DNA from: Bacilli bacterium
GTDB taxonomy: Bacteria; Bacillota_I; Bacilli_A; RF39; UBA660
Assembly (NCBI GenBank): GCA_017435485.1
Contig: JAFSEY010000001.1
Coordinates: forward strand, 17,197 to 81,196
Length of the DNA stretch: 64,000 nucleotides
Direction: 5' to 3'
The notes beneath the pieces were generated by a model, which did not search any database, had not been told where the DNA came from, and saw only the letters and a program-made list of their open reading frames with translations. Shown piece after piece: positions 11,065-46,685 of the stretch. Numbering within the stretch: position 1 is the first letter of the stretch; every line of letters begins with the position of its first letter. A program made the translations under genes and the position numbers.

Positions 11065-11108
11065 TGGCAGGGGCGGAGAGAATCGAACTCCCAACAGTGG
11101 TTTTGGAG
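11065..11108 (-). pseudogene. 3' half of host tRNA-Trp(CCA); ICE left junction
   Basis: Minus strand CTCCAAAACCACTGTTGGGAGTTCGATTCTCTCCGCCCCTGCCA: anticodon loop, T-arm, acceptor 3' strand and CCA, with no D-arm. Confidence 0.9.
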
Positions 11109-11213
11109 TAATTGATAAGTCAACTCCAAACACTTCAAAACCCCATAAATCCTAGTAAAACGACTTACAACAAATTACGAAATAAATCGGTTTACTAGGG
11201 TTTATTAGATTGA

Positions 11214-11234
11214 TTTGCCACCAAAAGTGCCACC
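11214..11234. promoter_or_regulatory. Putative integrase arm-type site (left end)
   Basis: TTTGCCACCAAAAGTGCCACC; near-copy at 46552-46572. Confidence 0.65.
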
Positions 11235-11373
11235 AGATGACTACTAAAACGACAACTATGGTCTTTTGGACTATATTACAATCTAATACCCATAACTTGA
11301 TACAAATTTAAACTCCAAACATTTTTGTTTTTTACAAAATATATTATATCACTTTTTATAATTATTTGGAATA

Positions 11374-12999
11374 CTATACCATTATTTTTTCTTGATAAAG
11401 CTCAATATCATCTATTGGCTTTAAATCAAAATAAGCACCATTAGATGCCGAAATAATGGTATCAATAAAAGCATCTAATTGTTCCTTATTTAATGATTCT
11501 ATAAAACTAGCTATATCTTTTAACTTTGGATCTAATTCAAATAAATAATTTCTTGCAACACTAACTGCTTTTGGTAAAGATAATGTATCAATAGGTTCAC
11601 CCATTAATTGATCTAGAGCAGAATAAATCTTATCCATATCAGTTAAGTTAATACCTGTTATGATTGAATATACACTTAAAAGATTATCCTTTATATCTTT
11701 TTCTTTATTTGTTATAAATTTAGCATATTCAGATTTATTCTCACTAATAGATAATGTAAGCTCTAAATAATCAGTTATCTTTTCATCTTGCACCATACTA
11801 CTATGAGTATATATCTTTAAAGTAGTAGCAGGTTCCGAATGACCTAATCTACGAGCAACATCTTGTAGTGGAACTCCAATAGACAATAAATAAGTAGCAT
11901 GGCTATGTCTTATATCATGTATAGTAATTTTTCTTAATTTATTTTGAGAAACAAACTTATTCCATTCTTTAGTAAGATAATTTGGATCCCAAACTTTTTC
12001 AGCATCTAAAGTTTTAAATATATAATCTTCATCAGTAGGATTGAATCCATTTTTTATTTGTTCTTCTTTATACTTCATTAACAAATCATAACAATCCATA
12101 ATGACACTAATATCTCTTTTACTTTTATCAGTTTTAAGTTTTTTACATACAAGACCATTGCTTAACTTTTCTATAATATCTTCTTCATTTATATTTTCAT
12201 CAGTTACACGAATAATCTCTCTTCTAACTGCAAGATGAAACTTTTTCTTTACTTCTCTTATACCTTTAACAAATACAGGTTTAGATATAATTTTTAAATC
12301 TTTCCATTTAAGACCAATTAATTCACCTCTACGAAGTCCTGTATTAAACAACAAATAAATAGCACAACGAAATCTCAAATTACATGGCTCTAATAAATCA
12401 AAAGTAGTAAGCATTTCTTCATAACCATAATATTCTCGTTCTTGACTATTATATGTTGGTGCATCAAGAACATAGTCTGCAGGATTTGAAAGAATCCATT
12501 TTTTCTTTTTAGCATAGTTATACATTGATTTAATTAATTTATGAACATGAGTAATATATGTTTCAGTAAGTGGCTCACCAGTTTTTGGATTAATACTTTT
12601 TCTCATTTTAGCATATAAGTTTTCTAAATCTGATTCTTCAATATTTCTTATTTTATTATCCCCAAGCTCTGGTAGTATCCAATTATTTAATAAATTCTTA
12701 TATCCCTGAATAGTAGTTGGGGATCTTTTTTTGTATTTAGTATCATTAAGATAAAATTCAGCAAGTTGAGTTAATGTATAGCCACTATTTTGTTCTTTAA
12801 GACCTTCATCTTTTTTCTTCTTTTGAAGTTCTTTAATTTCATCTCTACGAGCAATAGCATCATCTTCAGTACCATATATTCTTTCTACAATTCTATCACG
12901 AGTCCCATCATCACGAAAGCCATTACTGACTTCGATTCTATAAACACCATCGGCTTCCTTATAAATATTTTTTAAACGATTATCTTTAATTTTTCCTAT
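11374..12999 (-). CDS. int: Tyrosine integrase (ICEBs1/Tn916-like), probable ATA start, ~541 aa
   Basis: TGLRRGELIGLKW, HDIRHSHAT, LGHS..TTLKIY. Frame is open 131 codons upstream of the track start, encoding an arm-binding-like domain (GVYRIEVSNGF...); SD AGGTGG 7 nt before ATA 12999. Confidence 0.92.
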   Translation of the reverse strand: MGKIKDNRLKNIYKEADGVYRIEVSNGFRDDGTRDRIVERIYGTEDDAIARRDEIKELQKKKKDEGLKEQNSGYTLTQLAEFYLNDTKYKKRSPTTIQGYKNLLNNWILPELGDNKIRNIEESDLENLYAKMRKSINPKTGEPLTETYITHVHKLIKSMYNYAKKKKWILSNPADYVLDAPTYNSQEREYYGYEEMLTTFDLLEPCNLRFRCAIYLLFNTGLRRGELIGLKWKDLKIISKPVFVKGIREVKKKFHLAVRREIIRVTDENINEEDIIEKLSNGLVCKKLKTDKSKRDISVIMDCYDLLMKYKEEQIKNGFNPTDEDYIFKTLDAEKVWDPNYLTKEWNKFVSQNKLRKITIHDIRHSHATYLLSIGVPLQDVARRLGHSEPATTLKIYTHSSMVQDEKITDYLELTLSISENKSEYAKFITNKEKDIKDNLLSVYSIITGINLTDMDKIYSALDQLMGEPIDTLSLPKAVSVARNYLFELDPKLKDIASFIESLNKEQLDAFIDTIISASNGAYFDLKPIDDIELYQEKIMV

Positions 13000-13010
13000 A
13001 CTAACACCAC

Positions 13011-13319
13011 CTAAACAAATTTAGTTCTAGTATTATTACTTTTAGGAGTTATATTTTTAATTTCACTAGAATTATTATTTTTTAATTCGTTAATATATTT
13101 TTCAATATCTTTTGAATCATAAAAATTTAATTTTCCTCTTTTAATAACAGGTATTAATCCTCGCTTAACTGCATCATTTAAACCATAAGATGTAAGTATA
13201 GGATATAATTCTATAACTTCTTTTGCTTTTAATAAACGATTGCTTTCACTAGAATTAATACAATTTTGATTTTGATATTTCTTTATAATTGTTCCAATTT
13301 CAATTAACATATCACCCAA
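13011..13319 (-). CDS. xis: Excisionase-like winged HTH protein
   Basis: LLKAKEV..LYP...GLIPVIKRGKLNFY...DIEKYI; directly upstream of int. Confidence 0.7.
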   Translation of the reverse strand: MGDMLIEIGTIIKKYQNQNCINSSESNRLLKAKEVIELYPILTSYGLNDAVKRGLIPVIKRGKLNFYDSKDIEKYINELKNNNSSEIKNITPKSNNTRTKFV

Positions 13320-13362
13320 ATTATTATTCAGTATACATTCCTCTTATAATCATCACTCCTTA

Positions 13363-14103
13363 TTAAATATTAATTTTAGAAAGATTATATTCTTTAATTT
13401 TTTCTAGATATTCATCAGGCATATTTTGAAATAAATAATCCTCAAAATATTCAATCCAATTGTCTTTAAAAGAATAGTAATCTTTATCAAATGTTTCTAA
13501 TGAATTCCATCTTGTATTCATGTCCTCAGCATACCAATCATCATATTTATCAAGTTTATTTATGGCATCCTTAACATTTGAAAATGCATCTAATATTCCT
13601 AAAAATCTATCTTTTTTAGAATAATCACTTTTAGTTAAGAATTCTTGTAAATCTTCTAAATCTTCACTATAACCATTACAATCCCATTGCATTAAACCAC
13701 CATTTTCAACTTGATAATTAAAGTTACCAAACTTAACTGCAAGTTTTTCATAATCTGATAATTTAGATAAAAACTCATCTCTAGACATAGAATTGTTTTT
13801 CCATATATCATAAGATTGATCCATAATGAAAGACCAAAGACTATCAATATCTTTTAACACATCTTTTTTAACAACATCTTTTATAATTTTCTTTTTATCT
13901 TTTAAATAATCAGTCATAGAAAGAGAATCATTGTCGGCTATAAACTCATTAACCAACATTATATCCTCATTAGTAAATTCTAAATCATAATCGCTATCCA
14001 TTAAATCAGCACAAAACTTTGTTAATATTTTTGCATCAATGTTGGTAGATGTTTTATGTAGAAAGTAAACAACATTTTTTATATATTCTTTTTTATTATC
14101 TAT
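13363..14103 (-). CDS. DMP19/DUF4375-like acidic protein (possible DNA mimic)
   Basis: FNYQVENGGLMQW..NGY motif; highly acidic; GGAGG + 8 nt + ATA 14103 in frame. Confidence 0.6.
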   Translation of the reverse strand: MDNKKEYIKNVVYFLHKTSTNIDAKILTKFCADLMDSDYDLEFTNEDIMLVNEFIADNDSLSMTDYLKDKKKIIKDVVKKDVLKDIDSLWSFIMDQSYDIWKNNSMSRDEFLSKLSDYEKLAVKFGNFNYQVENGGLMQWDCNGYSEDLEDLQEFLTKSDYSKKDRFLGILDAFSNVKDAINKLDKYDDWYAEDMNTRWNSLETFDKDYYSFKDNWIEYFEDYLFQNMPDEYLEKIKEYNLSKINI

Positions 14104-14106
14104 AAA

Positions 14107-14262
14107 TTATTCCTCCTCAAAAAATTTATCCCATTGTTTTTTATCAAAATATCTACGATGGTATAAAATATATTCTTTATTAGCTTTATTAGGGAATACC
14201 ACTACATAGCGATATCCCCAAAATTTAATCCATTTCCATTTTAACTTTGACATATTTCTCAT
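14107..14262 (-). CDS. Small hypothetical protein (51 aa, MRNMSKLKWKW...)
   Basis: ATG overlaps the upstream stop; the end overlaps the next SD; not in the ORF track. Confidence 0.45.
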   Translation of the reverse strand: MRNMSKLKWKWIKFWGYRYVVVFPNKANKEYILYHRRYFDKKQWDKFFEEE

Positions 14263-15299
14263 ATACTAACTGATTCCTTATTTTCAGCATATAATCCAAA
14301 TTCACGATCATAAAACTTTTCAAAATTATTTATGATTCTTTTACTATAATTAACAATAGTATTTAATGAATCATCAATTTCTTTAAAGTCTTTTTCTTTA
14401 CTCCAAGCATACAAATAAGAAAGTGAATAATCACTTGGATTCATATCTAAATATTTAGATACAACATATGCAATTGACTCGGCTTCAGTTTCATATTGAT
14501 TACGATGCTCTTGGTAATCACGATGATTATTTTCAAGATGCTTATGTGCAAGTGCATGAGCATATTCATGAATTAATACTTTCATTTGCATTAAACTACC
14601 TAAACCTTTTCTAACAACAATAGTATGATTAGAGTGGTCACAATATCCTTTAGTGCCTCCCTCTAATTCTTTGAATTCAACTTTAAATCCGTCATTATAA
14701 ATAGTTTTAATAAAACAATCCATTATATCTTCGGCTTTTCTATCATTAATGACAGGGTTAAGTTCTGCATCAATAATATCCATAGGAATAGTAGTATCTT
14801 TTACATCAAATACATTTCCTAAACTAAATCCTGATAATTTTTGTTTATAGAATGTGATAGTGTCATCGTTTTTATCTTTATATTTTTTCTTTTCATCATC
14901 AGTTAATAAGAAGTATGGTTTATACTCATACTTCTCATCACCAATTTTAATTTTTGCTAAATTATAAAAATTAGGAATAAATATTTTTATTCCCTTACTA
15001 TCTTTATTTAACATATAACCCATATCTTTAATTGTTTTAAAAGCTGTCACATATTCAGCATCAGGTTTTTGCACCCATATTAACATTTGGTTATTAAATG
15101 AATAATTATTAAAGTTAATTATATTATCTAAAAACTTTTTGATATCAGATTCATCTTTGAATTTTAGAACTGCCTCTTTTTTTAAATCATACAAAATCTC
15201 TTTTAATTCACTTTCTATATTATCTTTTTCTTTTTCATCTTTGGCTTTGCAAAATTCAAAACCAAGTTCATTAATCTTTTTTAATTTTTCTTCAATTAT
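14259..15299 (-). CDS. ardC: ArdC-like ssDNA-binding protein with metallopeptidase-like domain
   Basis: FNNYSFNNQMLIWVQKPDA...GIKIFIP; HEYAH...ETEAESIAYVV; GGAGG + 8 nt + ATA 15299. Confidence 0.75.
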   Translation of the reverse strand: MIEEKLKKINELGFEFCKAKDEKEKDNIESELKEILYDLKKEAVLKFKDESDIKKFLDNIINFNNYSFNNQMLIWVQKPDAEYVTAFKTIKDMGYMLNKDSKGIKIFIPNFYNLAKIKIGDEKYEYKPYFLLTDDEKKKYKDKNDDTITFYKQKLSGFSLGNVFDVKDTTIPMDIIDAELNPVINDRKAEDIMDCFIKTIYNDGFKVEFKELEGGTKGYCDHSNHTIVVRKGLGSLMQMKVLIHEYAHALAHKHLENNHRDYQEHRNQYETEAESIAYVVSKYLDMNPSDYSLSYLYAWSKEKDFKEIDDSLNTIVNYSKRIINNFEKFYDREFGLYAENKESVSI

Positions 15300-17565: not shown

Positions 17566-19344
17566 TTATTCTAGTTCAACTTTATTCATATTATTAATTG
17601 TTTTATTTTTTCTAAATTCATCCAAATTAAAACACTCGATTTGATATTCTCTCGGAGTGTTTGGTAGATTAACAATTTTATATTTAATTGGGTATTTTGA
17701 AATAGGAACAATAGTAGCTTTAATAGGATGCATTCTTGTTCCCATAAATATTGCCTCACCAAATTGAAATCTCATCAATTCATCAGGCATCATTAACTCT
17801 CTACCCATAAGAGATTTATCATTTGAAATATTATAATCTAATTGTTCCAATCGGCTAGATGTAGAAACTCTTTCACTTGAAATTGTATATTTTCCCAAGC
17901 GAGATGAAATCTCACGAGCAGTCTCATTATCAGCTGTTAATAAGTATATCCAATTAGTACAATTCGACTTGATAGTTCCTGCTTGTTCTTTATAAGTTTC
18001 TTTTAATTGGTCAAAATCCTGTAATACTAAATAGAATCTTATATTTCTAGAACGAGCAACTTGTATTTTATGACTCATATTCATTGGTGGCATAGAACTA
18101 AATTCATCACAAACAAAATTAACTCTAATAGGCATCTTACCACTAGGAAGTGATTGAGCAGTATTAACTAGAGCTTGATAACATTGGTCAACAAAGAGTG
18201 TTGCAAGTTCATGTCTTGATTCTTTCTCATCAGGTATAATTAAAAATACTGCAGTTTTTTCCATACCAATACTATCTAATTCAAAATCAGTTCTACTTGT
18301 AAGATTTGCAATACCTGTATCACTAAATATTTTAATGACAGTTGCAAGTACAGAGAATAATGTTGCTCTTGTTTCACCTTTAGCAAAACTACCTGTAGCA
18401 TATGACATTTTGGCAAGATTACCAAAAGTTTTTTGTTGAAAATATAAATCCAACGAATTAAACCTATCAATTGTTTTAGCTCCATGTTCTACTAGCATAT
18501 TATAAATAGAAAATAAGTGAACTTGTTCTTCTTTAGGTGCATCCTCAATAATTGCATAACATAAAGCAGTTAAAACTGCATTAGCAGACTTTTCCCAATA
18601 CATATCTTTACTAGAAAGATTTTTTGTTAAAGATTTAGAAAAGTTTTCAATTAAGTCACCTGCAAGATCAATATTACCATCTTTATAATATTTATATGGC
18701 AAATGTAATGGATTCCATCCATCAGATGAAAGAGCATCTCTCAAGTTAATAACTTTAATTTTATATCCCTGTTTTTTAAGAAAATCAGAAGTATGAGAAT
18801 AAAGTTCACCCTTAACATCATTAACCACCATTGATTCACCTGCATAACCTAAATTAAAAATTAAAGGCATTATTTCACAAATAGTTTTACCACTACCTGT
18901 GGATCCGATGATTAATGTATGATCAAATGAATCAGAATAATAATATTTACCATCCATCATAGTGACAGGTATACCACCACTCTTTAGGGGAGAGCCAATA
19001 TCCCAAACCTTAAATTGTTTTTTGATTTCTTTTTTTGTAGCCCAACGAGAACTACCATATTCAAAACTACCATCTTCTTCAGGCATCTTTTTTAATTTTT
19101 GTAATTTTAATTTTAATTCTTTATCATACTTAAGAACAAACAACATTATTAATGATGCCATAAGAATAGTACCAAATAGTAGACTAATATCTTTTAATTG
19201 AAATAATGAGTGAATAATATTAATATCCCAAGATAGTTTAATATTATTTTTTATGATAGTAGTTAAGTTATAACAAACATTACAAGATAAAATAAATGCA
19301 CATATAGAAATAATTATATAATTAATTGTTTTCTTAATTAACAT
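17566..19344 (-). CDS. virD4: VirD4/TraG-like type IV coupling protein
   Basis: N-terminal TMs, YGSSRWA, GSTGSGKT Walker A, DVKGEL, DEFSSM, ARSRNI. Confidence 0.92.
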   Translation of the reverse strand: MLIKKTINYIIISICAFILSCNVCYNLTTIIKNNIKLSWDINIIHSLFQLKDISLLFGTILMASLIMLFVLKYDKELKLKLQKLKKMPEEDGSFEYGSSRWATKKEIKKQFKVWDIGSPLKSGGIPVTMMDGKYYYSDSFDHTLIIGSTGSGKTICEIMPLIFNLGYAGESMVVNDVKGELYSHTSDFLKKQGYKIKVINLRDALSSDGWNPLHLPYKYYKDGNIDLAGDLIENFSKSLTKNLSSKDMYWEKSANAVLTALCYAIIEDAPKEEQVHLFSIYNMLVEHGAKTIDRFNSLDLYFQQKTFGNLAKMSYATGSFAKGETRATLFSVLATVIKIFSDTGIANLTSRTDFELDSIGMEKTAVFLIIPDEKESRHELATLFVDQCYQALVNTAQSLPSGKMPIRVNFVCDEFSSMPPMNMSHKIQVARSRNIRFYLVLQDFDQLKETYKEQAGTIKSNCTNWIYLLTADNETAREISSRLGKYTISSERVSTSSRLEQLDYNISNDKSLMGRELMMPDELMRFQFGEAIFMGTRMHPIKATIVPISKYPIKYKIVNLPNTPREYQIECFNLDEFRKNKTINNMNKVELE

Positions 19345-19385
19345 CCCTCCAAACAAAAAGATTATCTTTTTATTGATAATCTTAC

Positions 19386-22119: not shown

Positions 22120-22722
22120 TCATAGACCTATATCAAGATTATCTTTATTTTTTAATTGTTTTAATGAACAAGTATTATTTAATAATTCTTCTAGAAATAA
22201 ACCACCATTATACAATGTATTCATTTCAAAATTACTATTATTGTATGAATATGACATTTTTTCGAACGAATTAAGGTCAAGTTTGCGATCTTCATATTCA
22301 TTAAGTCTATCATTATTATTTAACATATTAATTAAAGAATCATTAACTAAAAAAGCCATATATGTTTTAGCTTTCTTTATTTCATCTTTATTAAACTGAT
22401 AGATAGTGGGATACTCATCAATATCCTTATTATATTGTTTTACAAACACACAATTATCTTTTGTGGCATTAACTGACTGAATAATTAAATCTTGTTTTAT
22501 ATCCAAATCATAATTTGCTTTAACAAAATTTTTTAATGAAAACATATTCATATCTAAATTAGAATCTAATAATTCTTTATCAATATCTAAATTACAATTA
22601 GCAAGAGCATAATCATATATATAATTTAATGTTTTAGTTTTAGCATCCATAGAATATTTGCCAACTAACATATCACTTTCAAAAGTATTGTTATCAACTC
22701 TTGTTATATCAACAACTTGCAT
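22120..22722 (-). CDS. Hypothetical ICE protein
   Basis: ORF coupled to the relaxase stop. Confidence 0.7.
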   Translation of the reverse strand: MQVVDITRVDNNTFESDMLVGKYSMDAKTKTLNYIYDYALANCNLDIDKELLDSNLDMNMFSLKNFVKANYDLDIKQDLIIQSVNATKDNCVFVKQYNKDIDEYPTIYQFNKDEIKKAKTYMAFLVNDSLINMLNNNDRLNEYEDRKLDLNSFEKMSYSYNNSNFEMNTLYNGGLFLEELLNNTCSLKQLKNKDNLDIGL

Positions 22723-24155
22723 TATCTATATTCCTCCAATTCATATTGCATTTCAGCAATGATTTGTTTTTCTTCTGCCTCTAACTCATACATCAAATGG
22801 TTTATAGCTTGATTAATAAATCTTTTATAATTAAGTTCTTTATAAAAATATTTATTTCTGAATTTATTATATCTATCATAATCATATCCTAATTTTTTTA
22901 ATGCATTGTAATATTCAGTAGAACTCATTTCATAATCAAGAGTAGAACACGAGCCAATAAGTGCATCTGCATCAAAATTATATTTAGAATTTTTTAACCA
23001 TCTTTGAAAAACTTTTTTTGTTTCATTATAGTTAAGACCTGCAACCATACATAACTTGTATAAATCTTTAGCAATTTTAATTTTAGTTTCATCTTTAGCA
23101 TAGTCACTACGACTTTTAAACTTTAACTCTTTAATATGTTTAGATAAAAAAGATTTTTCACGAGCCATCAAGTCCATAGCTTGATATTTTTTATAATTAG
23201 ATAAAATTTCATTACCAATTTTTGTATATAAACGATTAAGCTGATCGTTATAATATTTTTTACTTTTATTATCTTTAGTCATACCATAAAGAGAAGTTAA
23301 TTCTTTTTGATGTTCCTCTAATAACCTTAAATAATTAGCATAATTATATTTGACCGAATCATGACTTAATATAAAGTGTATAATATTATCTAATTCTTCT
23401 TTATAAGGTTTCATATTTTTTGAATTATATTGAAGTCTGCCTGTTTTTGGTAGGTTATCATAAAAAGAAAGTAATTGTTGATTCAATGTCTTTCTAAACT
23501 TATCACTATATAATTTTTGACCTTTAACTTTTGTTAATTCTTTTAATGATATACCACCTGTGATATTTGAAAATTCTTTGTCCCTTAATTCATAAAATTT
23601 TGTATTATCAATTAAATAATTACCAATATTACTTTTCATATTTTGAATAGCAAATTGTGGTATAAAACCTTTTGTAGCAGTTTTATTTTTTTCTATCAAA
23701 CTAATATGTAAGTGTGGGTTATCAGTATTACGATGCAAACTTGCATACCAAATAGAGTTATCTAACTTGAGTCCCATATCTACGATTAATGATGGCATTA
23801 TATGTTTAGTTAAATCATAATAATCAGCTTTAGTTATTAAACCATTTTTTATAGCAAAGTCAGGTGGGAAAGAGATGACCAAGTTCCAAACAAAACCTGT
23901 GTCATCTATTTTAGGTAGATCTTGTTTAGGATTTATATCACCATCTTGTCCCCAAACAAATGACTCGCATTTTTCATAAAGAAAAGAATCTTTATCAGCT
24001 AGAGCAAAATATTCATTCATTATGTTTTTATCATCTAAACTAGTGGCATCTGCTTTTTCTTTTTTAGAAACATAATCAACCCATTTTGAAATATGTTTAC
24101 TAGCAGTAAGAGAATGCTTATACCTAGTACGAATGATAATATTACTTTTACTCAT
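22722..24155 (-). CDS. Relaxase, MobL (MobP2)-like
   Basis: WVDYVSK (catalytic Tyr region), VWNLVISF, HUH motif SLHRNTDNPHLHI. Confidence 0.85.
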   Translation of the reverse strand: MSKSNIIIRTRYKHSLTASKHISKWVDYVSKKEKADATSLDDKNIMNEYFALADKDSFLYEKCESFVWGQDGDINPKQDLPKIDDTGFVWNLVISFPPDFAIKNGLITKADYYDLTKHIMPSLIVDMGLKLDNSIWYASLHRNTDNPHLHISLIEKNKTATKGFIPQFAIQNMKSNIGNYLIDNTKFYELRDKEFSNITGGISLKELTKVKGQKLYSDKFRKTLNQQLLSFYDNLPKTGRLQYNSKNMKPYKEELDNIIHFILSHDSVKYNYANYLRLLEEHQKELTSLYGMTKDNKSKKYYNDQLNRLYTKIGNEILSNYKKYQAMDLMAREKSFLSKHIKELKFKSRSDYAKDETKIKIAKDLYKLCMVAGLNYNETKKVFQRWLKNSKYNFDADALIGSCSTLDYEMSSTEYYNALKKLGYDYDRYNKFRNKYFYKELNYKRFINQAINHLMYELEAEEKQIIAEMQYELEEYR

Positions 24156-36248: not shown

Positions 36249-36283
36249 TTTTTCCTCCTTTATTTTTGTATAAAAAAAGCAAT

Positions 36284-36937
36284 CTAATCGATTGCATCTA
36301 AATATTTTGTAGTTCCATCCCAATAATGAACTATCATTCTATAACCAACTAATCGTCCTTTATATGCATAACTAATACAAGATATAACTTTAAAATTTTC
36401 ATCTTCCATATATTCCAAAGTCACATCAAACGATGCATCATAACATTCTTTATCAGTTTTATATTTAATTAAACTTTGTAATCTTTCAAATTCTTGATCT
36501 TCTAGTGAATCAGAAGTTTCTTCTTTTTCTTCCGTAGAATCATTAGAATTGTCAGTAGTTTCATCAACAATAATTTTATCATCACTTTGATTATTATCAA
36601 TAGGTGGAACTTCCTCTTTATTATTACTACTAACATCTTCTTTAATAACTACATCATTTTTATTAGTAGTTTGGTTAGTAGTTTCTTGTTTTTCTGATGT
36701 TGTTTTTTCATCTTCATTATCAACATCATGAATAATTTGTTTTTCTTCATCTTGTGTTTCTAAAATTACATCTTTATCAGATGAAGTATTAATAGAATCA
36801 TTAACAACATTTTCTTTGTTAATAACATCAGTAGTAGGAATATCATTTTTGTTATCCTTAAATACATAAAATATAAAAATACTACAAACTATTAAAATGA
36901 TAAACACAAGAATGAAAGGTAATATCTTTTTCTTCAT
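36284..36937 (-). CDS. Membrane-anchored hypothetical protein with acidic linker
   Basis: N-terminal TM; GGAGG SD. Confidence 0.65.
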   Translation of the reverse strand: MKKKILPFILVFIILIVCSIFIFYVFKDNKNDIPTTDVINKENVVNDSINTSSDKDVILETQDEEKQIIHDVDNEDEKTTSEKQETTNQTTNKNDVVIKEDVSSNNKEEVPPIDNNQSDDKIIVDETTDNSNDSTEEKEETSDSLEDQEFERLQSLIKYKTDKECYDASFDVTLEYMEDENFKVISCISYAYKGRLVGYRMIVHYWDGTTKYLDAID

Positions 36938-38103: not shown

Positions 38104-38901
38104 TCAATTGTATTCTAATAATATTTTTAATTGAATGCCATTTTCAAGTCTCTTTTTAATAACTTCACAATACTTGTCAGTAATTTCTATACCAATCCAT
38201 CTGCGACCTAACACTTCGCATCCAAGTAAAGTAGAGCCACTTCCACTCGTAAAATCCAAAACCAATTCACCACTTTTAGTATAAGTAGAGATTAAATATT
38301 CCATTAAATTAACAGGTTTTTGTGTTGGATGATATAATCTCGATTCTCTAGGAAATTGAATAACATTTCTAGGGAAGTTACCGAACTCCTGTAGGTGTTC
38401 TTTTTTTTCTTTATTTTTCTTCTCTGATAAATAATCAATAGCAGAGCGAGAAACTTTAAGATTAACTGAAATAATTCCCTGTGGATAATAACACATATGA
38501 TTATGTGCTTGATGGACTGTGCCACCTTTAGAAAATACCATTACATCTTCATAACAACGAAGTGGTTGATAATTAGCATTTTGAAATCCTGTGACTTGAG
38601 TTTTTACCCATTTCCAATCATAACGATATAGTTTTTCATTACTCATCCTTAAATTACTAGAAAATGGCTCATTTCCAAATAACACAATAGCACCATCATC
38701 TTTAATAAGTTTTAATAACTTATCCCACATTTTATCAAAAGGAATTATTTGATCCCAAGAATAACCTGTGACTGCATAGGGTGGATCCGTTATGATAGCA
38801 TCAACTTTGATGCCTTGCTCAATTAGATAATCCATGACATCTAAACAATCACCTTTATACAATGTCCCATTATTTGTTGAATAGTATGGACTACAAGATA
38901 T
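38104..38901 (-). CDS. Orphan N6-adenine/N4-cytosine DNA methyltransferase (beta class)
   Basis: DPPY, HPTQKP, LDFTSGSGS order; GGAGG + 9 nt + ATA 38901. Confidence 0.9.
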   Translation of the reverse strand: MSCSPYYSTNNGTLYKGDCLDVMDYLIEQGIKVDAIITDPPYAVTGYSWDQIIPFDKMWDKLLKLIKDDGAIVLFGNEPFSSNLRMSNEKLYRYDWKWVKTQVTGFQNANYQPLRCYEDVMVFSKGGTVHQAHNHMCYYPQGIISVNLKVSRSAIDYLSEKKNKEKKEHLQEFGNFPRNVIQFPRESRLYHPTQKPVNLMEYLISTYTKSGELVLDFTSGSGSTLLGCEVLGRRWIGIEITDKYCEVIKKRLENGIQLKILLEYN

Positions 38902-38966
38902 ATTGAATCACCTCCAAACTTTTTATATTTAGTTTTTTGATAACGAGTGAGCTATAAACTCGTAAT

Positions 38967-39419
38967 TCAAAAATAATCAACAAATCTTTCAAATCCTAAT
39001 TTTAAGCAAAATCTTACAATTGCACTTTTTCTGATAGAGTTAATCTTTTGATCATAAGTTACTAACTCATCACATAAATCAAGATTTGTCTTATTTTCTA
39101 GAAATGTAGCAACAAAAACTTTTCTTTCAATTTCATTTAAACAATTAAAAGCATTTTTATATTTAAGCAGTAATTGTTCTTTTTTATCTTCAGTATCATA
39201 TTTCTTAATGATAAAAGATTCGACTTTTGAATTAGTAGGTTTTTTATTACCACCAACTCTAACTTCATAATTAGCAGTATATTTAATGTAATACTCATCT
39301 TTATCAATGATATGTTGAAAATTATCAACAATACTTAAGAAAGCAACAATCATTTTTTTGAATTTCTTAACATCAAATTGTTTAATTATGTAATTAGATA
39401 AAAATTGATTCTTATGCAT
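38967..39419 (-). CDS. ArpU/RinA-like transcriptional regulator
   Basis: FNCLNEIERKVF...FLE...LCDEL....INSIRKSAIVRF sigma-region-4-like tail. Confidence 0.55.
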   Translation of the reverse strand: MHKNQFLSNYIIKQFDVKKFKKMIVAFLSIVDNFQHIIDKDEYYIKYTANYEVRVGGNKKPTNSKVESFIIKKYDTEDKKEQLLLKYKNAFNCLNEIERKVFVATFLENKTNLDLCDELVTYDQKINSIRKSAIVRFCLKLGFERFVDYF

Positions 39420-39460
39420 AGATTCCTCCTTTCATATATACAAAAAGAGAGCGAAAACCA

Positions 39461-39577
39461 TTAGTAATTGATTTTTTGCTCTCTTGATATATCAGAAATT
39501 AAATTAAAAGGGTTGATGAAAGACACATTAAATCTTTCAAGAACAATATCGATAAAAATGTCAACGACAATTCTCAT
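39461..39577 (-). CDS. Putative 38-aa leader peptide overlapping a terminator
   Basis: SD AGGTGG, MRIVVDIFIDIVLERFNVSF...; the 3' end lies within the GAGAGC/GCTCTC hairpin at 39442-39485. Confidence 0.35.
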   Translation of the reverse strand: MRIVVDIFIDIVLERFNVSFINPFNLISDISREQKINY

Positions 39578-39881
39578 ACAAACCACCTCTGAATAAAATT
39601 TGTTTGTGACATATAATAACATCAAACAAATAAAAAAATAACTCCATATTTAAGGACTTAATTGTGGAGTGGATGTATGTCATAGTAGCAATACCTTTGT
39701 CTCTTTCCATACAACTATCACTACTATATCAAATATACCACTTGACAAATCAAAAGGCAAGATGAAAAAAAATCGAAAAAAAATAATAAAAATTATATAC
39801 TAAAAAATAAATAAAAAATCGAAAAAAAATACAAAAAATGAATACAAAATAGTATTCAAGCACCAACCAAACCCTTATAAA

Positions 39882-40136
39882 TTAAGCTTTAACTTTAGGA
39901 ACATAAGAAATTATGTCACTAGAATCACACTCTAGTACAAAGCAAAATTTTGCAACAACATCTGAATCATAACGAGTAATAGTATTATCATAATATTTTT
40001 TTATTACTTCAAATTTTAAACCAGTTAATCTACACAATTGATAAATTGAAACATTCTTTTTCTTCATTACTGCTTTTAAATTAGATTCTATTTTTCCATA
40101 ATCCGTATTCCACAATATTATTTTATCAGTTATCAA
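39882..40136 (-). CDS. Cro/C1-type HTH regulator, paralogue of 25484..25735
   Basis: VSIYQLCRLTGL...RYD..VVAKFC..LEC..SDIISY. Confidence 0.8.
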   Translation of the reverse strand: MITDKIILWNTDYGKIESNLKAVMKKKNVSIYQLCRLTGLKFEVIKKYYDNTITRYDSDVVAKFCFVLECDSSDIISYVPKVKA

Positions 40137-40311: not shown

Positions 40312-40761
40312 TTAATTAAGTTTTAAAGACATTATAAGATCATCAAACTTAAATCCCATCTTTTTATATATACTAATTGCTTTATCATTGTCTGTTGATA
40401 AACTTAATTCACAAAGATTTTTTTCTTTTGCAAAGGAAATTACTTGTTTTAATAATTTTGTTTGAATTCCTTTACATCTGTATTTTTTATCAGTGTATAC
40501 ATTACATATAAATCCTTGTAATCCATTATCATTGCATTGAGGTAAATATTCTATAATTTGAATACCACAAGTAGCAATAATAATATTATTACTTTCTTCT
40601 ATAAATATAAATAAATCTTTATTTAAATGCTTATTTAAATATTCAATTGTGGTGTTTAACAAATTATATTTATCTTCATATTCATCATCCCAATCATCTT
40701 TTTGTTGTTGAATTCTCAATTTACTTAATTGTTCAATATCTTTTTCACTTGATAAACGCAT
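40312..40761 (-). CDS. GNAT acetyltransferase
   Basis: CNVYT..KYRCKGI..KLL; A.SIYKKMGF. Confidence 0.85.
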   Translation of the reverse strand: MRLSSEKDIEQLSKLRIQQQKDDWDDEYEDKYNLLNTTIEYLNKHLNKDLFIFIEESNNIIIATCGIQIIEYLPQCNDNGLQGFICNVYTDKKYRCKGIQTKLLKQVISFAKEKNLCELSLSTDNDKAISIYKKMGFKFDDLIMSLKLN

Positions 40762-40790
40762 AACAACCTCCATATTTTAAGGAAATATTA

Positions 40791-41354
40791 TTAATTATAC
40801 CATTCCACAATATCTTCTAATTTTTTTCTTGGTCTCGCTGTAGGAAATTGATTTGGATAACCTAAAGATACTGCACAATTTAATTCAAGTTCATTGTGAT
40901 TTAATAGTTTTGCTATATCTTCTGCCACATAGACTGTATCTCTTATCCATAGTGTACCTAATCCAAGTTCAGTCGCTCTTAAACACATATTTTCAACACA
41001 AGCTCCGATAGATAAATTATCTCCAACAATCCAATTATCATTTTTTTCTCTAAATATTAATATTAGTATTGGAGCTTCTTTGATTACATTTGCAGTAGGA
41101 TTAACACTACTATTAAATCCTATTTTTTTCTTTTCTTCAGATAAATTTCTTTTATAAGTATCCTCAATCATCATATCAGCAATTTTATTTTTAACATCAT
41201 CTTTAACAATTACAAAAAACCAAGGTTGTTTGTTTTTTGCTGATGGTGCTAATCTTCCACAATTAAGTATGTCCTCAATTAACCCCTTATTAACATCTTC
41301 TTGTTTAAATGCTCTAATACTTCTTCTTTCTTTTATAGCTTGTAATGTTTCCAT
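40791..41354 (-). CDS. Nitroreductase family protein
   Basis: RRSIRAF, APSAKNKQPWFF, LGLGTLW, RPRK. Confidence 0.9.
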   Translation of the reverse strand: METLQAIKERRSIRAFKQEDVNKGLIEDILNCGRLAPSAKNKQPWFFVIVKDDVKNKIADMMIEDTYKRNLSEEKKKIGFNSSVNPTANVIKEAPILILIFREKNDNWIVGDNLSIGACVENMCLRATELGLGTLWIRDTVYVAEDIAKLLNHNELELNCAVSLGYPNQFPTARPRKKLEDIVEWYN

Positions 41355-41366
41355 ATTAACTCCTTT

Positions 41367-41900
41367 TTAATTATTTATATTATATTCTCTTAAAGCATAA
41401 CTATATGAATCTTCATATCCAGTTTTTATCAATTTAAAACCATAATTTTCATATATATTATTAAGTCTTTCGTTATTCTTTAAACAATCAAGTCTTAATT
41501 TACTCTTATTGTTATTAATAGCAATATTTTTACAAATTTTAATAATAATATTACCAACATTTTTATAATTTACTTTAGTAACCAATTTATAAATGTAATA
41601 TGCATCGGTTAAATCGTCTCGCCAATATTTGCTATTTGTTGATAATTCAAATCCACCAATTATCTTATCATTTTCCTTAATAATAAAGAAATATCCATTT
41701 TCAATAACATCCATAAATTCTTCTTTCGGATGATGTTCTAAATATTTAGACCATTGTTTAATACCTTTTTCTTTAAACCAATTTGTTCTTTCTTTGTACA
41801 AATCTAATAATTTATCTAAATCATTAATGTTACTTTTCGAAAAAGAATAATTTAAACCATTTAATTCTTCTTTTAACTCTTTATTTAATTCATAATTCAT
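41367..41900 (-). CDS. GNAT acetyltransferase
   Basis: LRLDC...NERL..IYENYGF. Confidence 0.8.
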   Translation of the reverse strand: MNYELNKELKEELNGLNYSFSKSNINDLDKLLDLYKERTNWFKEKGIKQWSKYLEHHPKEEFMDVIENGYFFIIKENDKIIGGFELSTNSKYWRDDLTDAYYIYKLVTKVNYKNVGNIIIKICKNIAINNNKSKLRLDCLKNNERLNNIYENYGFKLIKTGYEDSYSYALREYNINN

Positions 41901-41918
41901 ATTTAAAATTCCTAACTT

Positions 41919-42344
41919 TTATTTTAATTTCTTTTTTAAAAAATAATCAATTGTATTAGGTGGGCAATCTTCTATTTGAGCAAAAACTTTATAACCATTT
42001 TTTTCATAAAAGTTTCTTGCTTGAAAATCCCATGTTTCCATTCTAACACCTGTCAAATTTTCTTTATATGCCAAATTTTCTATTTCTTTTATTAATTTAG
42101 TACCTATATTTTGATGTCTATATTCTTCATCAACATATAACAAGTCTAAAAAATACCAATTATATTTTATACACCCAATAGCACCACCAATTAATTTATC
42201 ATTATTAAAAACCAAAAAGTTCATTTCTTTGTCATCAGAGCGATTATTTCTAAACCATTCACATTTACTATCATTAAATTTTATTAATCTATCCAAAATT
42301 TCATCAGCAAATTTCTGTTCATTATTATTTTTAATACTTATCAT
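41919..42344 (-). CDS. GNAT acetyltransferase
   Basis: LYVDEEYRHQNIGTKLI; FQARNFYEKNGY. Confidence 0.88.
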   Translation of the reverse strand: MISIKNNNEQKFADEILDRLIKFNDSKCEWFRNNRSDDKEMNFLVFNNDKLIGGAIGCIKYNWYFLDLLYVDEEYRHQNIGTKLIKEIENLAYKENLTGVRMETWDFQARNFYEKNGYKVFAQIEDCPPNTIDYFLKKKLK

Positions 42345-42365
42345 AATTTAATCTACCTTTCAAAA

Positions 42366-44069
42366 TTATTTTTGTAGTATTTGATAATACTTATTATTTT
42401 CAATTAATTCTTTATGTTTTCCTTTACCAACTAATTTCCCATGATCAATAACTAATATTTCATCAGCAATTTTCATCAATTGTGGCTTATGTGTAATCAT
42501 TATAACAGTGTGATCTTTCTTTAAATCTTTTAATACTTTAACAACTTGTTTAGCAGTATTCGGATCTAACGATGCTGTTACTTCGTCAAATAGTAATATT
42601 TCTGATTTAGATAATAAAGTTCTTGCAAGTGCAATTAGTTGTTTTTGTCCGCCTGATATATCGGTAGCATCTTCTTTTAAGATAGTATTATATCCATTAG
42701 GTAGTGACATTATAAAGTCATGAATTCCAACTCGTTTACAAGCTTCTATTTGTTTCTCTTTATTAGAATCAACTAGACTCAAATTTTCTCTAATACTCAT
42801 ATTAAATATAAAAGGTTTTTGTGTTGATATTGAAACATTAGATGAATATACATCTTTTGAATAATCATAAATGCTTGTTCCATCAATATAAATATTTCCC
42901 TTATCTAATTTATAAAGTCTTAATAATAATCTAAATATTGTAGATTTACCACTACCACTTTTACCGACAATAGCAGTTAAAGAATTACTTTCAATATCAA
43001 AACTTACATTATCTAAAATTAAATTATTTTCATAAGTGAATGATACATTATCAAAAGAAACATTTCCAAATATGTCATCAGTAATATTTTTTCCAAACTC
43101 TAACATATTCTTGTTATCATAATACATAACATTATATAGTCTATCAATTCTAACACTACTATTACAAATCTTATTTATTCTTTCAAAGAAAGAAGTGTTT
43201 TCGTTTTCAATTCTATCAATATAACCAATTACTAAAACTAACATTCCAACTGACATATTACCTTTAGCAATACCTAATATAACAATTATATAAGCAATAA
43301 CTTTTGCTACCATAATAAGAATAGGCAAAACAACTTTACTTCTATCCCAGTATATTCTTTTTAAAAAATATTGTTTTGTCCATGCTTTTTTATTTATTTC
43401 TAAATATTCATTTAATTTACTATGCATATCAAAAGATTTTATTTCTTTAGTGCCATCTAATGTTTGTGCAAACATTTCAACAATTTTGTCTTGTTGTTTT
43501 CTTTGTCCCATTAAATAGTAATCTTTTTTCTTTTGACATTCACTTAATAAATAAAGATATAACAAATTAAATACTAATACAATTATTCCAATATAAATAT
43601 TATTGAATAATAAAATACCAAGTGCTATTAACAAACTAATGAAGTGAGTTATAGCATCCATCATTCTATCAGCAAACATACAAACATCCCAAATGTCATT
43701 CGATGTAGTATTTACTAAATATGATTTAGTTAATTTTTTAGTAAAGTTTTCATCATAAGTAGCAACTTTATCTACAACATTTTCTTGTAATTTTGTATAA
43801 ACATAGTTAGTATTATCACGATAGGCGATATAATTCCAATGATATACTAGATTATAAATCAGATAATTTATACCAAGATATAATAAATTTATGAATGCCT
43901 CCTTATATAGTCCCTGAGTCGCAAAGTCAACTATTTTAGATGTGAATATCGGAAAACCTAAAACAGTAAAACTTCTTAAAAAAGCAGAGAAAAATAGAGC
44001 AAGTAATAATCTTTTATTATTAGCATTTAGTTTGAAATATTTTTTACATATTTTATAATACCTAATCAT
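42366..44069 (-). CDS. ABC exporter, fused TMD-NBD subunit
   Basis: GKSGSGKS, ISGGQKQ, DEVT. Confidence 0.9.
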   Translation of the reverse strand: MIRYYKICKKYFKLNANNKRLLLALFFSAFLRSFTVLGFPIFTSKIVDFATQGLYKEAFINLLYLGINYLIYNLVYHWNYIAYRDNTNYVYTKLQENVVDKVATYDENFTKKLTKSYLVNTTSNDIWDVCMFADRMMDAITHFISLLIALGILLFNNIYIGIIVLVFNLLYLYLLSECQKKKDYYLMGQRKQQDKIVEMFAQTLDGTKEIKSFDMHSKLNEYLEINKKAWTKQYFLKRIYWDRSKVVLPILIMVAKVIAYIIVILGIAKGNMSVGMLVLVIGYIDRIENENTSFFERINKICNSSVRIDRLYNVMYYDNKNMLEFGKNITDDIFGNVSFDNVSFTYENNLILDNVSFDIESNSLTAIVGKSGSGKSTIFRLLLRLYKLDKGNIYIDGTSIYDYSKDVYSSNVSISTQKPFIFNMSIRENLSLVDSNKEKQIEACKRVGIHDFIMSLPNGYNTILKEDATDISGGQKQLIALARTLLSKSEILLFDEVTASLDPNTAKQVVKVLKDLKKDHTVIMITHKPQLMKIADEILVIDHGKLVGKGKHKELIENNKYYQILQK

Positions 44070-45807
44070 TATTAAACACTCCTAACTTACTTGCACTTTT
44101 TCTAGCTTGTAGCCATCTATAATGTTCGTTGGTTTCCAATAATTCTTTATGTTTGCCATCACCAACAATTTTTCCCTCATGCAAAACAATTATTCTATCT
44201 GATTTTTTCATTAATTCAGGTTTGTGTGTAATCATTAAAATTGTATGATCTTTCTTTAAGTCTTTTAAAACTGAATTAATATGAGATGCAGTGTCAGGAT
44301 CTAGAGATGAAGTTATTTCATCAAATAATAATATTTCTGATTTAGAAAGTAAAGTTCTTGCTAAACTTATTAATTGTTTTTGTCCTCCCGAAATATTATT
44401 TGCATTTTCTCTTAATATAGTATTATAACCCTGTGGCAAAGATACAATAAAATCATGTATTCCAACTCGCTTACAAGCTTCGATTTGATGTTCTATATTC
44501 GGATCAACAAAATCTAAATTCTTTCTAATACTCATATTAAATATAAAAGGTTTTTGATTAACAACACTTACATTTGATTTATATATATCTTTAGAATACT
44601 CAAAAATATCTACACCATCTATTAAAATTTTTCCTTCGCTTGGTTTGTATAATCTTAATAACATATTAAATATAGACGTTTTTCCAGTACCACTTTGTCC
44701 AACTATTGTTGTTATTGAATTTGATTCGATTTTTAAGTTAATCCCTTTTATAATTTCCTTTGAATTATATCCAAATCTTACATTATCAAATTCTATAATT
44801 CCGTTAATATTATCATTATAAATGTTTCCATAAGTTATATCATTATTTACTTTATAATTTAAAATGCTATTAACTCTTTCAACTGATACATTAACTTCTC
44901 TGATAGAAGTAGTAGCATCAATTAATCTATCTAGATATGTAATTGTAGTTTCAAAATATCCAATTACCAAAACCAAAACATCAATAGTTATTTTTCCATT
45001 CATCATTAACAATAATAAAATTACATATAAAGCAATATTGAATCCATGAGTCATAAATCTTATGTCATTATCTCTTAATGTTAAATATTTTCTTTTTTCA
45101 ATGTATGCTTTAGCATATTTATTTTTAATTTCATTAAGTTTAGATTTTAATTTGGGTAGCATATCAAATGTTTTAATTTCTTGAAGTCCTGATAGTATTT
45201 GAGAAAATAAACTGCTATATCTATCTACTTGATGTTTTTGTTTCTTTAGATATATTGAACTTTTTCTATCAGCATAATTTCTAATACCAATATATAAAAG
45301 AGCAAATACTAAAAATATTAGTGCAACATAAACATTATATAAAGCGACTATAACACAAACAACTATAACTTGTATTATAGTAGTTAATAATTCTGATATT
45401 TGATCACACATATCACCAATATCAATTACATCAGAATTTATAGAATTTATTAGTTTACCTTTGCTTATGTGGTTAGTGAATCTATCATCAATTGTTACCA
45501 GTTTATTTAAAAGTCTAGTTTGTAAACTACCATAACAATAATTCATATTTTTTCCATATAATTTAATATTTATATAATAGAATAACTTATATAATGAATA
45601 AGAAATAACTAGTATACCCAAACTGATATAAGTCATTTTCAAATCGTTAGCTGTAGCATATTTTATTATCCAAGATGCAAATAATGTATTTAGCAAAAGA
45701 AAACCTTTATAACCAAGAGCAGTAATAACCATACCTAGAAAATAACTAATTTTTGTTTGTGATAATTTTAAGTAGTCTTTAACAAATTTATAGTATTCCT
45801 TTATCAT
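44062..45807 (-). CDS. ABC exporter, fused TMD-NBD subunit (heterodimer partner)
   Basis: GQSGTGKT, ISGGQKQ, DEIT. Confidence 0.9.
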   Translation of the reverse strand: MIKEYYKFVKDYLKLSQTKISYFLGMVITALGYKGFLLLNTLFASWIIKYATANDLKMTYISLGILVISYSLYKLFYYINIKLYGKNMNYCYGSLQTRLLNKLVTIDDRFTNHISKGKLINSINSDVIDIGDMCDQISELLTTIIQVIVVCVIVALYNVYVALIFLVFALLYIGIRNYADRKSSIYLKKQKHQVDRYSSLFSQILSGLQEIKTFDMLPKLKSKLNEIKNKYAKAYIEKRKYLTLRDNDIRFMTHGFNIALYVILLLLMMNGKITIDVLVLVIGYFETTITYLDRLIDATTSIREVNVSVERVNSILNYKVNNDITYGNIYNDNINGIIEFDNVRFGYNSKEIIKGINLKIESNSITTIVGQSGTGKTSIFNMLLRLYKPSEGKILIDGVDIFEYSKDIYKSNVSVVNQKPFIFNMSIRKNLDFVDPNIEHQIEACKRVGIHDFIVSLPQGYNTILRENANNISGGQKQLISLARTLLSKSEILLFDEITSSLDPDTASHINSVLKDLKKDHTILMITHKPELMKKSDRIIVLHEGKIVGDGKHKELLETNEHYRWLQARKSASKLGVFNND

Positions 45808-46283
45808 AGGTTCACCTTACAACTATACATATTATCTATTTGTTTAAAACCAAAAGACTTATACATTTTTATTGCTATTTCATTTTTACTACTTAATTTA
45901 AAACTTGTTATTCCCATTTTTTTAGCATAGTTAAAACATTCATTAAATACTTTTTTTTGAAATCCTTTACCTCTATGTTCTTCTTTTGTAAATACATTAC
46001 ATATATACCCATAAAAACCATTTGAATTATTATAAGTAGGGAAATGTTCATCTAAATAAAAACCACAATTGGCAACTAATTCATCATCAATAAACAATCC
46101 AAACATAAACAAAGTTTTATCCAAATGATTCTCAATATAAGTTTTTGTTTTTTCTCTTAATTTTGATTCATCTAAAATAATTTCATTATCATTAATATAT
46201 TTCAAGTCATAATTTTGAATTGCAATTCTTAACGAAACCATTTGATCTAAATCAGTTAAATTTAATTTTCTTATAACTTCCAT
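45804..46283 (-). CDS. GNAT acetyltransferase
   Basis: CNVFT..EHRGKGF; start ATG 46283 after GAGGAG. Confidence 0.85.
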   Translation of the reverse strand: MEVIRKLNLTDLDQMVSLRIAIQNYDLKYINDNEIILDESKLREKTKTYIENHLDKTLFMFGLFIDDELVANCGFYLDEHFPTYNNSNGFYGYICNVFTKEEHRGKGFQKKVFNECFNYAKKMGITSFKLSSKNEIAIKMYKSFGFKQIDNMYSCKVNL

Positions 46284-46327
46284 AAAAACTCCTCTCAATA
46301 CCTTAGCACTCATTATAATTATAACAT

Positions 46328-46367
46328 AAAAAAACGATTTACTCTCATAAACAAAGAGAAAATCGTT
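46328..46367 (-). terminator. Terminator downstream of the ICE-borne tRNA-Trp
   Basis: AACGATTT...AAATCGTT hairpin with A7 on the plus strand. Confidence 0.65.
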
Positions 46368-46376
46368 AAAATTCTC

Positions 46377-46450
46377 TGGCAGGGGCATCAGGATTTGAAC
46401 CCGAATAGATGGTTTTGGAGACCACTATGTTACCATTACATCATGCCCCT
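46377..46450 (-). tRNA. trnW: tRNA-Trp(CCA), intact, inside the ICE
   Basis: 74 nt AGGGGCATGATGTAATGGTAACATAGTGGTCTCCAAAACCATCTATTCGGGTTCAAATCCTGATGCCCCTGCCA folds into a full cloverleaf with encoded CCA. Confidence 0.95.
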
Positions 46451-46474
46451 AGAAAGCTCTTTTAGAGCAAACTT

Positions 46475-46484
46475 ATTATAACAC
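46475..46484 (-). promoter_or_regulatory. Extended -10 promoter for the ICE-borne tRNA
   Basis: TG-T-TATAAT 25 nt upstream of the tRNA. Confidence 0.5.
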
Positions 46485-46551
46485 ATTTATTGTGTTTTTT
46501 AACATTTTTTAACTTGTTTTAGTTCGTTTTATATTGAACTATTTTTTTAAC

Positions 46552-46572
46552 TTTGCCACCAAAGGTGACCAC
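46552..46572. promoter_or_regulatory. Putative integrase arm-type site (right end)
   Basis: TTTGCCACCAAAGGTGACCAC; near-copy of 11214-11234. Confidence 0.65.
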
Positions 46573-46647
46573 ACTTTGAAAGAGTAGTTTTAACAAAGTC
46601 AATGTTTATAAGGGTTAAATTGGCATTTAATCTCTCAATAACAAGAG

Positions 46648-46685
46648 TTTTGGAGACCATTATTATACCATTTAACTACGCCCCT
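46648..46685 (-). pseudogene. 5' half of host tRNA-Trp(CCA); ICE right junction
   Basis: Minus strand AGGGGCGTAGTTAAATGGTATAATAATGGTCTCCAAAA: acceptor 5' strand, D-arm and anticodon loop, then non-tRNA sequence. Confidence 0.9.

Follow-up and report, generated by a model that had tools for sequence, protein, structure and literature searches.

The stretch of DNA analysed here (the window) comprises 64,000 nt of the Bacilli bacterium contig JAFSEY010000001.1 (assembly GCA_017435485.1, positions 17,197 to 81,196 of the forward strand) and contains an integrative and conjugative element (ICE) of 35,538 bp at 11109-46646, inserted in the anticodon loop of the native tRNA-Trp(CCA) gene. This gene is found as two pieces on the same strand, 35.5 kb apart: an orphan 5' part, nucleotides 1-30, at 46656-46685 (minus strand), and an orphan 3' part, from the 3' strand of the anticodon stem to the encoded CCA, at 11065-11099 (minus strand). 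Each end of the ICE is marked by a copy of the 9-bp core GTTTTGGAG (plus strand), at 11100-11108 (attR) and 46647-46655 (attL), which on the tRNA strand reads CTCCAAAAC and corresponds to the anticodon loop with two nucleotides of the stem. With the core included, the native 5' part (46685-46647, minus strand) is AGGGGCGTAGTTAAATGGTATAATAATGGTCTCCAAAAC and the native 3' part (11108-11065, minus strand) is CTCCAAAACCACTGTTGGGAGTTCGATTCTCTCCGCCCCTGCCA. Fusion of 46685-46647 with 11099-11065 gives a 74-nt tRNA, AGGGGCG...CGCCCCTGCCA, with the pair G7-C66. An earlier note on this DNA had proposed that the joined halves rebuild such a tRNA and had set its G7-C66 pair against A7-T66 of a tRNA inside the element, and both observations were confirmed; the direct repeat at the ends is also present, only the core given there, TTTTGGAG, is one base short. 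Upstream of the orphan 5' part a TG-extended -10-like element, TGTTACAAT, is located at 46711-46703, which is probably the promoter of the host tRNA-Trp gene.

Neither of the ICE junctions holds a whole tRNA according to ARAGORN, and no likeness to a tRNA 3' half was found in the element sequence next to the core at 46647, in agreement with the earlier claim that the ICE does not restore the 3' half. The identity between the attachment site of the element (attP) and its host target is limited to the 9 bp CTCCAAAAC. Since the tRNA 3' half is not in attP, integration leaves two dead halves 35.5 kb apart. The only tRNA called by ARAGORN in the window is the ICE-borne whole tRNA-Trp(CCA) at 46377-46450 (minus strand), which is 76% identical to the native gene, is oriented like the split gene and begins at a distance of 196 nt from the attL core. 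It keeps A1-U72, G73 and the encoded CCA, with A7-T66 in place of the native G7-C66.

The predicted fusion was searched for in 60 relative genomes. In G001, an ICE-free member of the same genus, an uninterrupted 74-nt gene identical to the fusion was read directly, with the 5' and 3' parts contiguous, and this tRNA together with its right flank matches the window at 99% over 489 nt. The tRNA-Trp of G002 is likewise 100% identical to the fusion, and many members of the family carry a gene about 95% identical to it, so the reconstituted gene expected in ICE-free relatives does exist. No close match to the ICE-internal tRNA was found among the 60 relatives, the best one (82%) being in another family. 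As the fusion matches ICE-free relatives and the internal copy is without a close match, the split gene is native and the internal copy foreign.

ARAGORN run on the whole 1.085-Mb assembly (94% complete) found 31 tRNAs, among which the ICE copy is the sole tRNA-Trp; the scan of the genome for other Trp tRNAs, suggested in the earlier note, thus gave none. A search with the pattern CTCCAAA-N13-GTTCRANTC, combined with ARAGORN, detected one intact gene each in ICE-free G001 and G002, and two sites in the genome of the window (G000), i.e. the element tRNA and an orphan half. In ten ICE-bearing genomes we noticed one intact, element-borne tRNA-Trp each and otherwise orphan 3' halves only (one each, two in G073); the genomes behind these and the following family counts are drafts or metagenome-assembled genomes. 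The genome uses code 11, as had been assumed: TGA ends 93 long open reading frames (ORFs) and read-through adds a median of 6 codons, on which grounds code 4 was rejected. As TGA is a stop, UGG is the sole Trp codon and depends on tRNA-Trp(CCA). The 2.4-Mb genome G074 (contigs C3 and C21; L052, L053) has extra tRNA-Trp genes besides the element copy, one beside a tRNA-Cys and one with an odd acceptor stem, so that not every host of the element family has a single copy.

The earlier note had placed the intact, divergent tRNA about 200 bp inside the end of the element, with an extended -10 and a terminator of its own, and the pattern matches on which our promoter and terminator calls are based bear this out. 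A promoter-like site with a leader occupies 46456-46502 (minus strand): the -35 TTAAAA at 46502-46497 is followed, after a spacing of 16 nt, by a TG-extended TATAAT, TGTTATAAT, at 46483-46475, and a leader hairpin, GCTCTAAAAGAGC, lies at 46468-46456 between this site and the ICE tRNA. The promoter-like site is kept in closer relatives (L037-L042, L088, L090). Downstream of the tRNA, a terminator-like hairpin followed by U7 was found at 46326-46367 (minus strand; -12.4 kcal/mol, z -3.2). A strict terminator scan gave no match there because the hairpin carries a bulge. Several relatives also have a hairpin and a T run downstream of the element tRNA, most clearly L040 and L044. With the element tRNA only 196 nt behind the severed 5' half, read-through into it from the host promoter is possible as well.

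In an alignment of 13 distinct element tRNAs, 97.8% of the cloverleaf cells were paired and 15 of the 21 pairs had double compensatory changes. None of 500 shuffles reached the observed percentage of pairing, number of compensatory pairs or covariation score, and a control with the 3' partners shifted by 1-3 columns gave about 50% pairing. Judged by these substitutions, the element tRNAs are maintained and functional-looking.

The two arms of attP flank the core at the opposite ends of the ICE. The tRNA-proximal arm, 196 bp at 46451-46646 (minus strand), resembles no tRNA 3' half and contains TGCCACCA at 46555-46562 with a degenerate copy adjoining; it is 97.6% identical in G299, where it stands behind a different host 5' half. 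The integrase-proximal arm, 11109-11373 (minus strand), has two TGCCACCA repeats (11216-11223 and 11228-11235), which are candidate arm-type sites, an inverted core-like repeat ACTCCAAA at 11123-11130, and a motif, TGGTGGCAC-TTTTGGTGGCA, kept in the relatives L013 and L016. The arm motif TTGGTGGCA has 13 matches in the whole window against 6.8 expected, an enrichment that is not significant, and its candidate status as an arm-type site is suggested by position and by conservation in relatives. In the circular form, integrase, attP and tRNA are predicted to make one compact module.

All ORFs of at least 100 aa between the cores are on the minus strand. Of 40 ORFs scanned against Pfam, 37 lie inside the element; the scan gave no capsid, tail or terminase match and pointed to conjugation genes instead; a temperate phage was rejected, as no phage structural genes were found among the scanned ORFs. 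The element codes for a tyrosine integrase of about 545 aa (11374-13008; PF00589 at 3.6e-23), a type IV coupling protein of the VirD4/TraG type (17566-19356; PF02534 at 1.3e-59), a MobL-family relaxase (22722-24155; PF18555 at 8e-30) and mating-pore proteins (25753-32813), i.e. an M23 peptidase, a VirB4-like ATPase (26314-28638), a PrgI-like protein (31241-31552) and a TrbL/VirB6-like protein (31515-32813). Integrase, relaxase, coupling protein and VirB4 between att repeats mark the inserted DNA, by its predicted gene content, as an ICE, which is how the earlier note had classified it.

Alignment A1 shows the catalytic residues of the integrase (R226, H364-x-x-R367, H390 and Y400) to be invariant or almost so. 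Its first ATG would give 410 aa only, and the conserved N-terminal part of about 135 residues (12607-13008) lies upstream of it, open in frame. No ATG, GTG or TTG occurs in this conserved N-terminal region, either here or in an 88%-identical relative (L016 9680-10000); a ribosome-binding-site-like AGGTGGTG stands ahead of ATA and ATT codons there, and a non-canonical start codon is likely. The protein also has a C-terminal extension of about 130 aa past the catalytic tyrosine (11374-11800, minus strand), identified as DUF7736 and unusual for tyrosine integrases.

No close integrase relatives were found in the 60 relative genomes, while the protein database contains about 70 homologues of 38-88% identity, mostly of about 530 aa. 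We inspected 22 integrase loci (39-88% identity) from GTDB genomes and from metagenome contigs of human, ruminant, chicken and rabbit guts. In 19 of them the integrase is followed, at a distance of 245-435 bp (in most cases 245-325), by an orphan tRNA-Trp 3' half that begins with CTCCAAA, and at none of these (0/19) did ARAGORN call a tRNA. At the other end, a host 5' half ending in CTCCAAAAC is followed, after 150-235 bp, by a whole tRNA-Trp(CCA) in G061-63, G065-67 and G070-74; in case of G068 the element tRNA is near the contig end and the host 5' half would lie beyond it. G112, G122, G175, G249, G270, G293 and G299 were added when 300 genomes of the family to which the window belongs were searched, and this brings the layout of host 5' half, arm and whole tRNA-Trp to at least 18 genomes, with arms of 150-290 bp. 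In the attL alignment the arms are specific to the element lineage and stand behind differing host halves, and in the closer relatives the TGGTGGCA repeat pair, the extended -10 and the leader hairpin are conserved. With its place fixed beside attP across integrases only 39% identical, the tRNA is part of the integration module. One locus, in G070 (C39, 4.8-5.3 kb and 50.3 kb; L029, L049, L050), is rearranged: the integrase is convergent with the element tRNA and adjoins it, and 45 kb away there is another host-type 5' half, which is inverted and accompanied by a partial 3' part.

Recent movement of the element between hosts can be followed in its close copies. Ten metagenome contigs carry a 100% identical integrase and ICE DNA that is 97.9-98.6% identical to the window. 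Their similarity stops at window position 11099, i.e. core plus one base, beyond which nine of the ten have another host 3' half, CGTTAATGTGGGTTCAACTCC..., and L062 has a variant; three different flanks are present. Thus 98%-identical ICE copies occur in at least three other host backgrounds; such a spread, over at least four backgrounds in all, is an indirect sign that the element may excise and transfer by conjugation. From the opposite end, G299 has the tRNA-proximal arm and the first half of the window ICE's tRNA (240/246 identical) behind another host 5' half. Near-identical ICE copies beside different host halves mean that the same element entered several species, always at the same 9 bp. 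The exact attL/attP junction pattern had no match in metagenome DNA; a pattern taken from inside the ICE tRNA detected two contigs, L087 and L088.

Later fates of such elements are visible in four places. In G299 (C8, ~100.87-101.5 kb; L090 1440-2180) a second element has inserted into the element tRNA and split it at CTCCAAAAC; this newcomer carries a third tRNA-Trp, and its family-type integrase adjoins the host 3' half, 47 kb away. The body of the first ICE is missing. The replacement tRNA is thus usable as a host attachment site (attB). G112 (C23; L094 1470-2975) has about 1.4 kb between the cores, with the element tRNA and one unrelated 193-aa ORF, and no family integrase was found in its genome; this mini-remnant could represent either an ICE that has decayed or an element that can be mobilised in trans. 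In L087 (1-520) and L088 (330-760) the host 5' half has decayed, and behind it comes a related attL arm (82%). L088 continues, right after the element-type tRNA, with sequence homologous to the flank downstream of the native tRNA in the window; the ICE body is no longer present, and it seems that the foreign tRNA has permanently replaced the host gene. Dependence of hosts on the element tRNA would seem to arise over time, through decay of the 5' half (L087, L088) or loss of the integrase or ICE body (G112, L088). These loci, few contigs as they are, lend support to a slow ratchet towards dependence.

Taken together, the observations lead us to a reading to which we give a probability of roughly 0.85: the tyrosine integrase of the ICE carries out recombination between attP and the anticodon loop of the only tRNA-Trp(CCA) gene of the host, and the element supplies a whole replacement gene. 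Strand exchange by the integrase would take place inside the anticodon loop; the element tRNA would then be expressed and charged and would take over all UGG decoding, making integration survivable, and excision over the intact core would rebuild the native gene. Over time the orphan halves would decay and the host would become permanently dependent on the element tRNA. Several points weigh against this reading. The 94%-complete draft is without tRNA-Asn and tRNA-Phe, and a second tRNA-Trp could sit on a missing contig. Expression and charging of the element tRNA, as well as activity of this integrase copy, whose conserved N-terminus is without a canonical start codon, are deduced from the sequence, and the host-range rationale considered below is an argument of the same kind.

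That rationale concerns the use of a whole gene in place of a half. Host acceptor stems vary at pairs 6-67 and 7-66 (AGGGGCG, AGGGGTG, AGGGGTA, AGGGGAT), therefore a fixed 3' half would give mismatched chimeras in many hosts, which a whole gene would avoid. By bringing a whole tRNA the element would produce no chimeric tRNAs with mismatched acceptor stems, and the near-universal Trp anticodon loop would offer it a landing site in many species. A wider and more tentative reading, for which we see slightly less than an even chance, is that in this family of gut Bacilli with small genomes ICEs drive serial horizontal replacement of the sole, essential tRNA-Trp, with the whole-gene design as an adaptation that releases the integrase from dependence on a matching 3' half and thereby widens the host range. 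According to it each incoming element would kill the resident gene and install its own, which would become the landing pad of the next element (as in G299), and after decay of the halves or deletion of the ICE body the element tRNA would stay as a permanent host gene (L088, G112).

The closest precedent is found among phages. In the tRNA-dependent lysogeny of actinobacteriophages (Fionnbharth K4, cluster L, Gaia, BrutonGaster and Mollymur) a tyrosine integrase acts on a core of 8-17 bp, no tRNA is rebuilt, and the phage-borne cognate tRNA was shown experimentally to be required for viable integration (Guerrero-Bustamante and Hatfull, mBio 2024, PMC10865867). The tRNAs targeted there are Lys-TTT, Ile2-CAT and Leu-CAA; the same paper cites the Lj965 prophage of Lactobacillus johnsonii, suggests the phage modules as integration vectors for mycobacteria and makes no mention of conjugative elements (PMC10865867). 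The ICE resembles these phages in its tyrosine integrase with arm-type sites (candidate ones here), in an attB located in a single-copy tRNA gene, in the short core (8-17 bp in the phages, 9 bp here), in the junctions at which no tRNA is rebuilt, and in the element-borne cognate tRNA with its own promoter (promoter-like here). Unlike the phages it is conjugative, with relaxase, coupling protein and type IV secretion genes, and faces no choice between lysis and lysogeny; it targets tRNA-Trp(CCA) and lives in gut Bacilli with small genomes, not in Actinobacteria, and the tRNA has a fixed place beside attP through the family. The phage system was tested experimentally, whereas the ICE case is known here from sequence alone. 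Literature searches found nothing specific on ICE-borne replacement tRNAs, and papers containing both the lysogeny term and 'conjugative' deal, by title and abstract, with other subjects. What is new is that a conjugative element follows the split-and-replace logic of the phages, with a target different from theirs and a module shared by its whole family.

In case of classical tRNA-targeting islands and ICEs, attP carries the 3' part of the tRNA and the gene is rebuilt at the integrase-proximal junction. The element described here shares with those acting in the anticodon loop the tyrosine integrase, the crossover in the 7-nt loop, the stem as inverted binding sites and the direct end repeats. 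It differs from them in the identity of only 9 bp, in the gene that stays split and in the integrase placed next to the orphan 3' half; a classical anticodon-loop island was rejected, as no tRNA similarity follows the attL core. The skin element in sigK and the comK prophages also split a gene by insertion, and their precise excision restores it, as it presumably would here. The cell can do without the genes that they split, and these elements bring no replacement copy, whereas the target here is always essential and a replacement comes along.

The earlier note had interpreted the arrangement as addiction by gene replacement, in which the element evolved to destroy an essential tRNA so that cells losing it die, in the manner of a post-segregational killing module. 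Host dependence as such stands, the element tRNA being the only whole tRNA-Trp while the ICE is integrated, and the loci with a decayed host 5' half (L087, L088) or with the element tRNA kept after loss of the integrase or ICE body (G112, L088) also fit that view. Addiction as the immediate function did not hold up: both halves and both 9-bp cores are perfect in the window, normal excision should restore the gene, and a cell that loses the element in this way should therefore survive. The near-identical copies found in several hosts speak of easy movement, not lock-in, the remnant loci are equally expected from a passive ratchet, and the role demonstrated for the tRNA in the phage precedent is survival of integration (PMC10865867). 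We consider the addiction reading unlikely. To make integration survivable is, on this analysis, the better-supported role of the tRNA; addiction may be a secondary outcome, and lineages with decayed halves (L087, L088) might be addicted in the above sense.

Three other explanations have still less in their favour. The tRNA would be ordinary cargo, serving codon supply or as a decoy against anticodon nucleases, if its match with the target were a coincidence; mobile elements often carry tRNAs and the anti-defence idea is discussed in PMC10865867. Yet every member examined has the same isoacceptor, at 150-290 bp from the core and with unchanged orientation, behind integrases down to 39% identity, and no other tRNA-Trp was found in the ICE-bearing genomes searched by pattern and ARAGORN. 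With isoacceptor, orientation and place fixed through the family, incidental cargo was rejected as very improbable. A decayed classical integration, whose attP once had the tRNA 3' half and restored the gene at attL until that copy eroded, and whose whole tRNA was picked up later in this one strain, could appeal to the statement that both evolutionary directions are conceivable (PMC10865867), but the arm beside the core has no trace of a 3' half and is 97.6% identical in another host genus (G299). The arrangement is moreover common to the whole integrase family and is therefore ancestral to it, not a local decay, so that this explanation was also rejected and we grant it very little likelihood. 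Finally, in a draft genome of 14 contigs, metagenome mis-assembly or binning might have joined an ICE to tRNA halves; both junctions, however, lie within one 116-kb contig and over 30 independent assemblies show junctions of this type, and on these grounds we rejected such an artefact, which we regard as extremely unlikely.

Obtained results extend the 2024 actinobacteriophage mechanism to elements that are conjugative and reside in uncultured gut Bacilli, and they add a new target, the only tRNA by which the single Trp codon is read. Island finders that seek a tRNA with its 3' fragment will miss or mis-delimit elements of this kind, and annotators may mistake the element tRNA for a native gene of the host. 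Natural experiments are provided by the relatives in which the replacement tRNA was re-targeted, orphan halves decayed, or a foreign tRNA was kept after the element was gone; re-targeting, decay and retention together outline how an essential tRNA gene can be replaced horizontally. Compact integrase-attP-tRNA modules might also serve as broad-host integration vectors.

The remaining genes of the ICE, all on the minus strand, are placed around the conjugation functions. Directly upstream of the integrase lies a small ORF of 102 aa (13011-13319) with no Pfam match; an ORF of 95-108 aa in this position is also found in L013-L016 and L054-L063, and it could possibly encode an excision factor. Pfam matches further identify an ArdC-like anti-restriction protein with a metallopeptidase domain (14259-15194) and, at 32894-36323, a sortase with a 939-aa surface adhesin containing a thioester domain and SpaA repeats, which is probably a mating adhesin. 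The region 38104-40136 codes for a DNA methylase (38104-38862), an uncharacterised ORF and a helix-turn-helix regulator (39882-40136), and 40312-46283 contains cargo, with genes for four GNAT acetyltransferases and a nitroreductase as well as two ABC exporter genes. Of the GNAT genes, the last was called as an ORF at 45804-46388, overlapping the ICE tRNA and its terminator; its start is most likely the in-frame ATG at 46283 behind the ribosome-binding site GAGAGGAG, rather than 46388.

Outside the element, directly downstream of the native tRNA, a DUF5343 protein and a Swt1-like HEPN protein form a defence-like pair (9621-10847, minus strand). This left flank is missing beside the tRNA in same-genus G001, the contig of which stops 150 bp beyond the tRNA, and the spot is therefore variable independently of the ICE.

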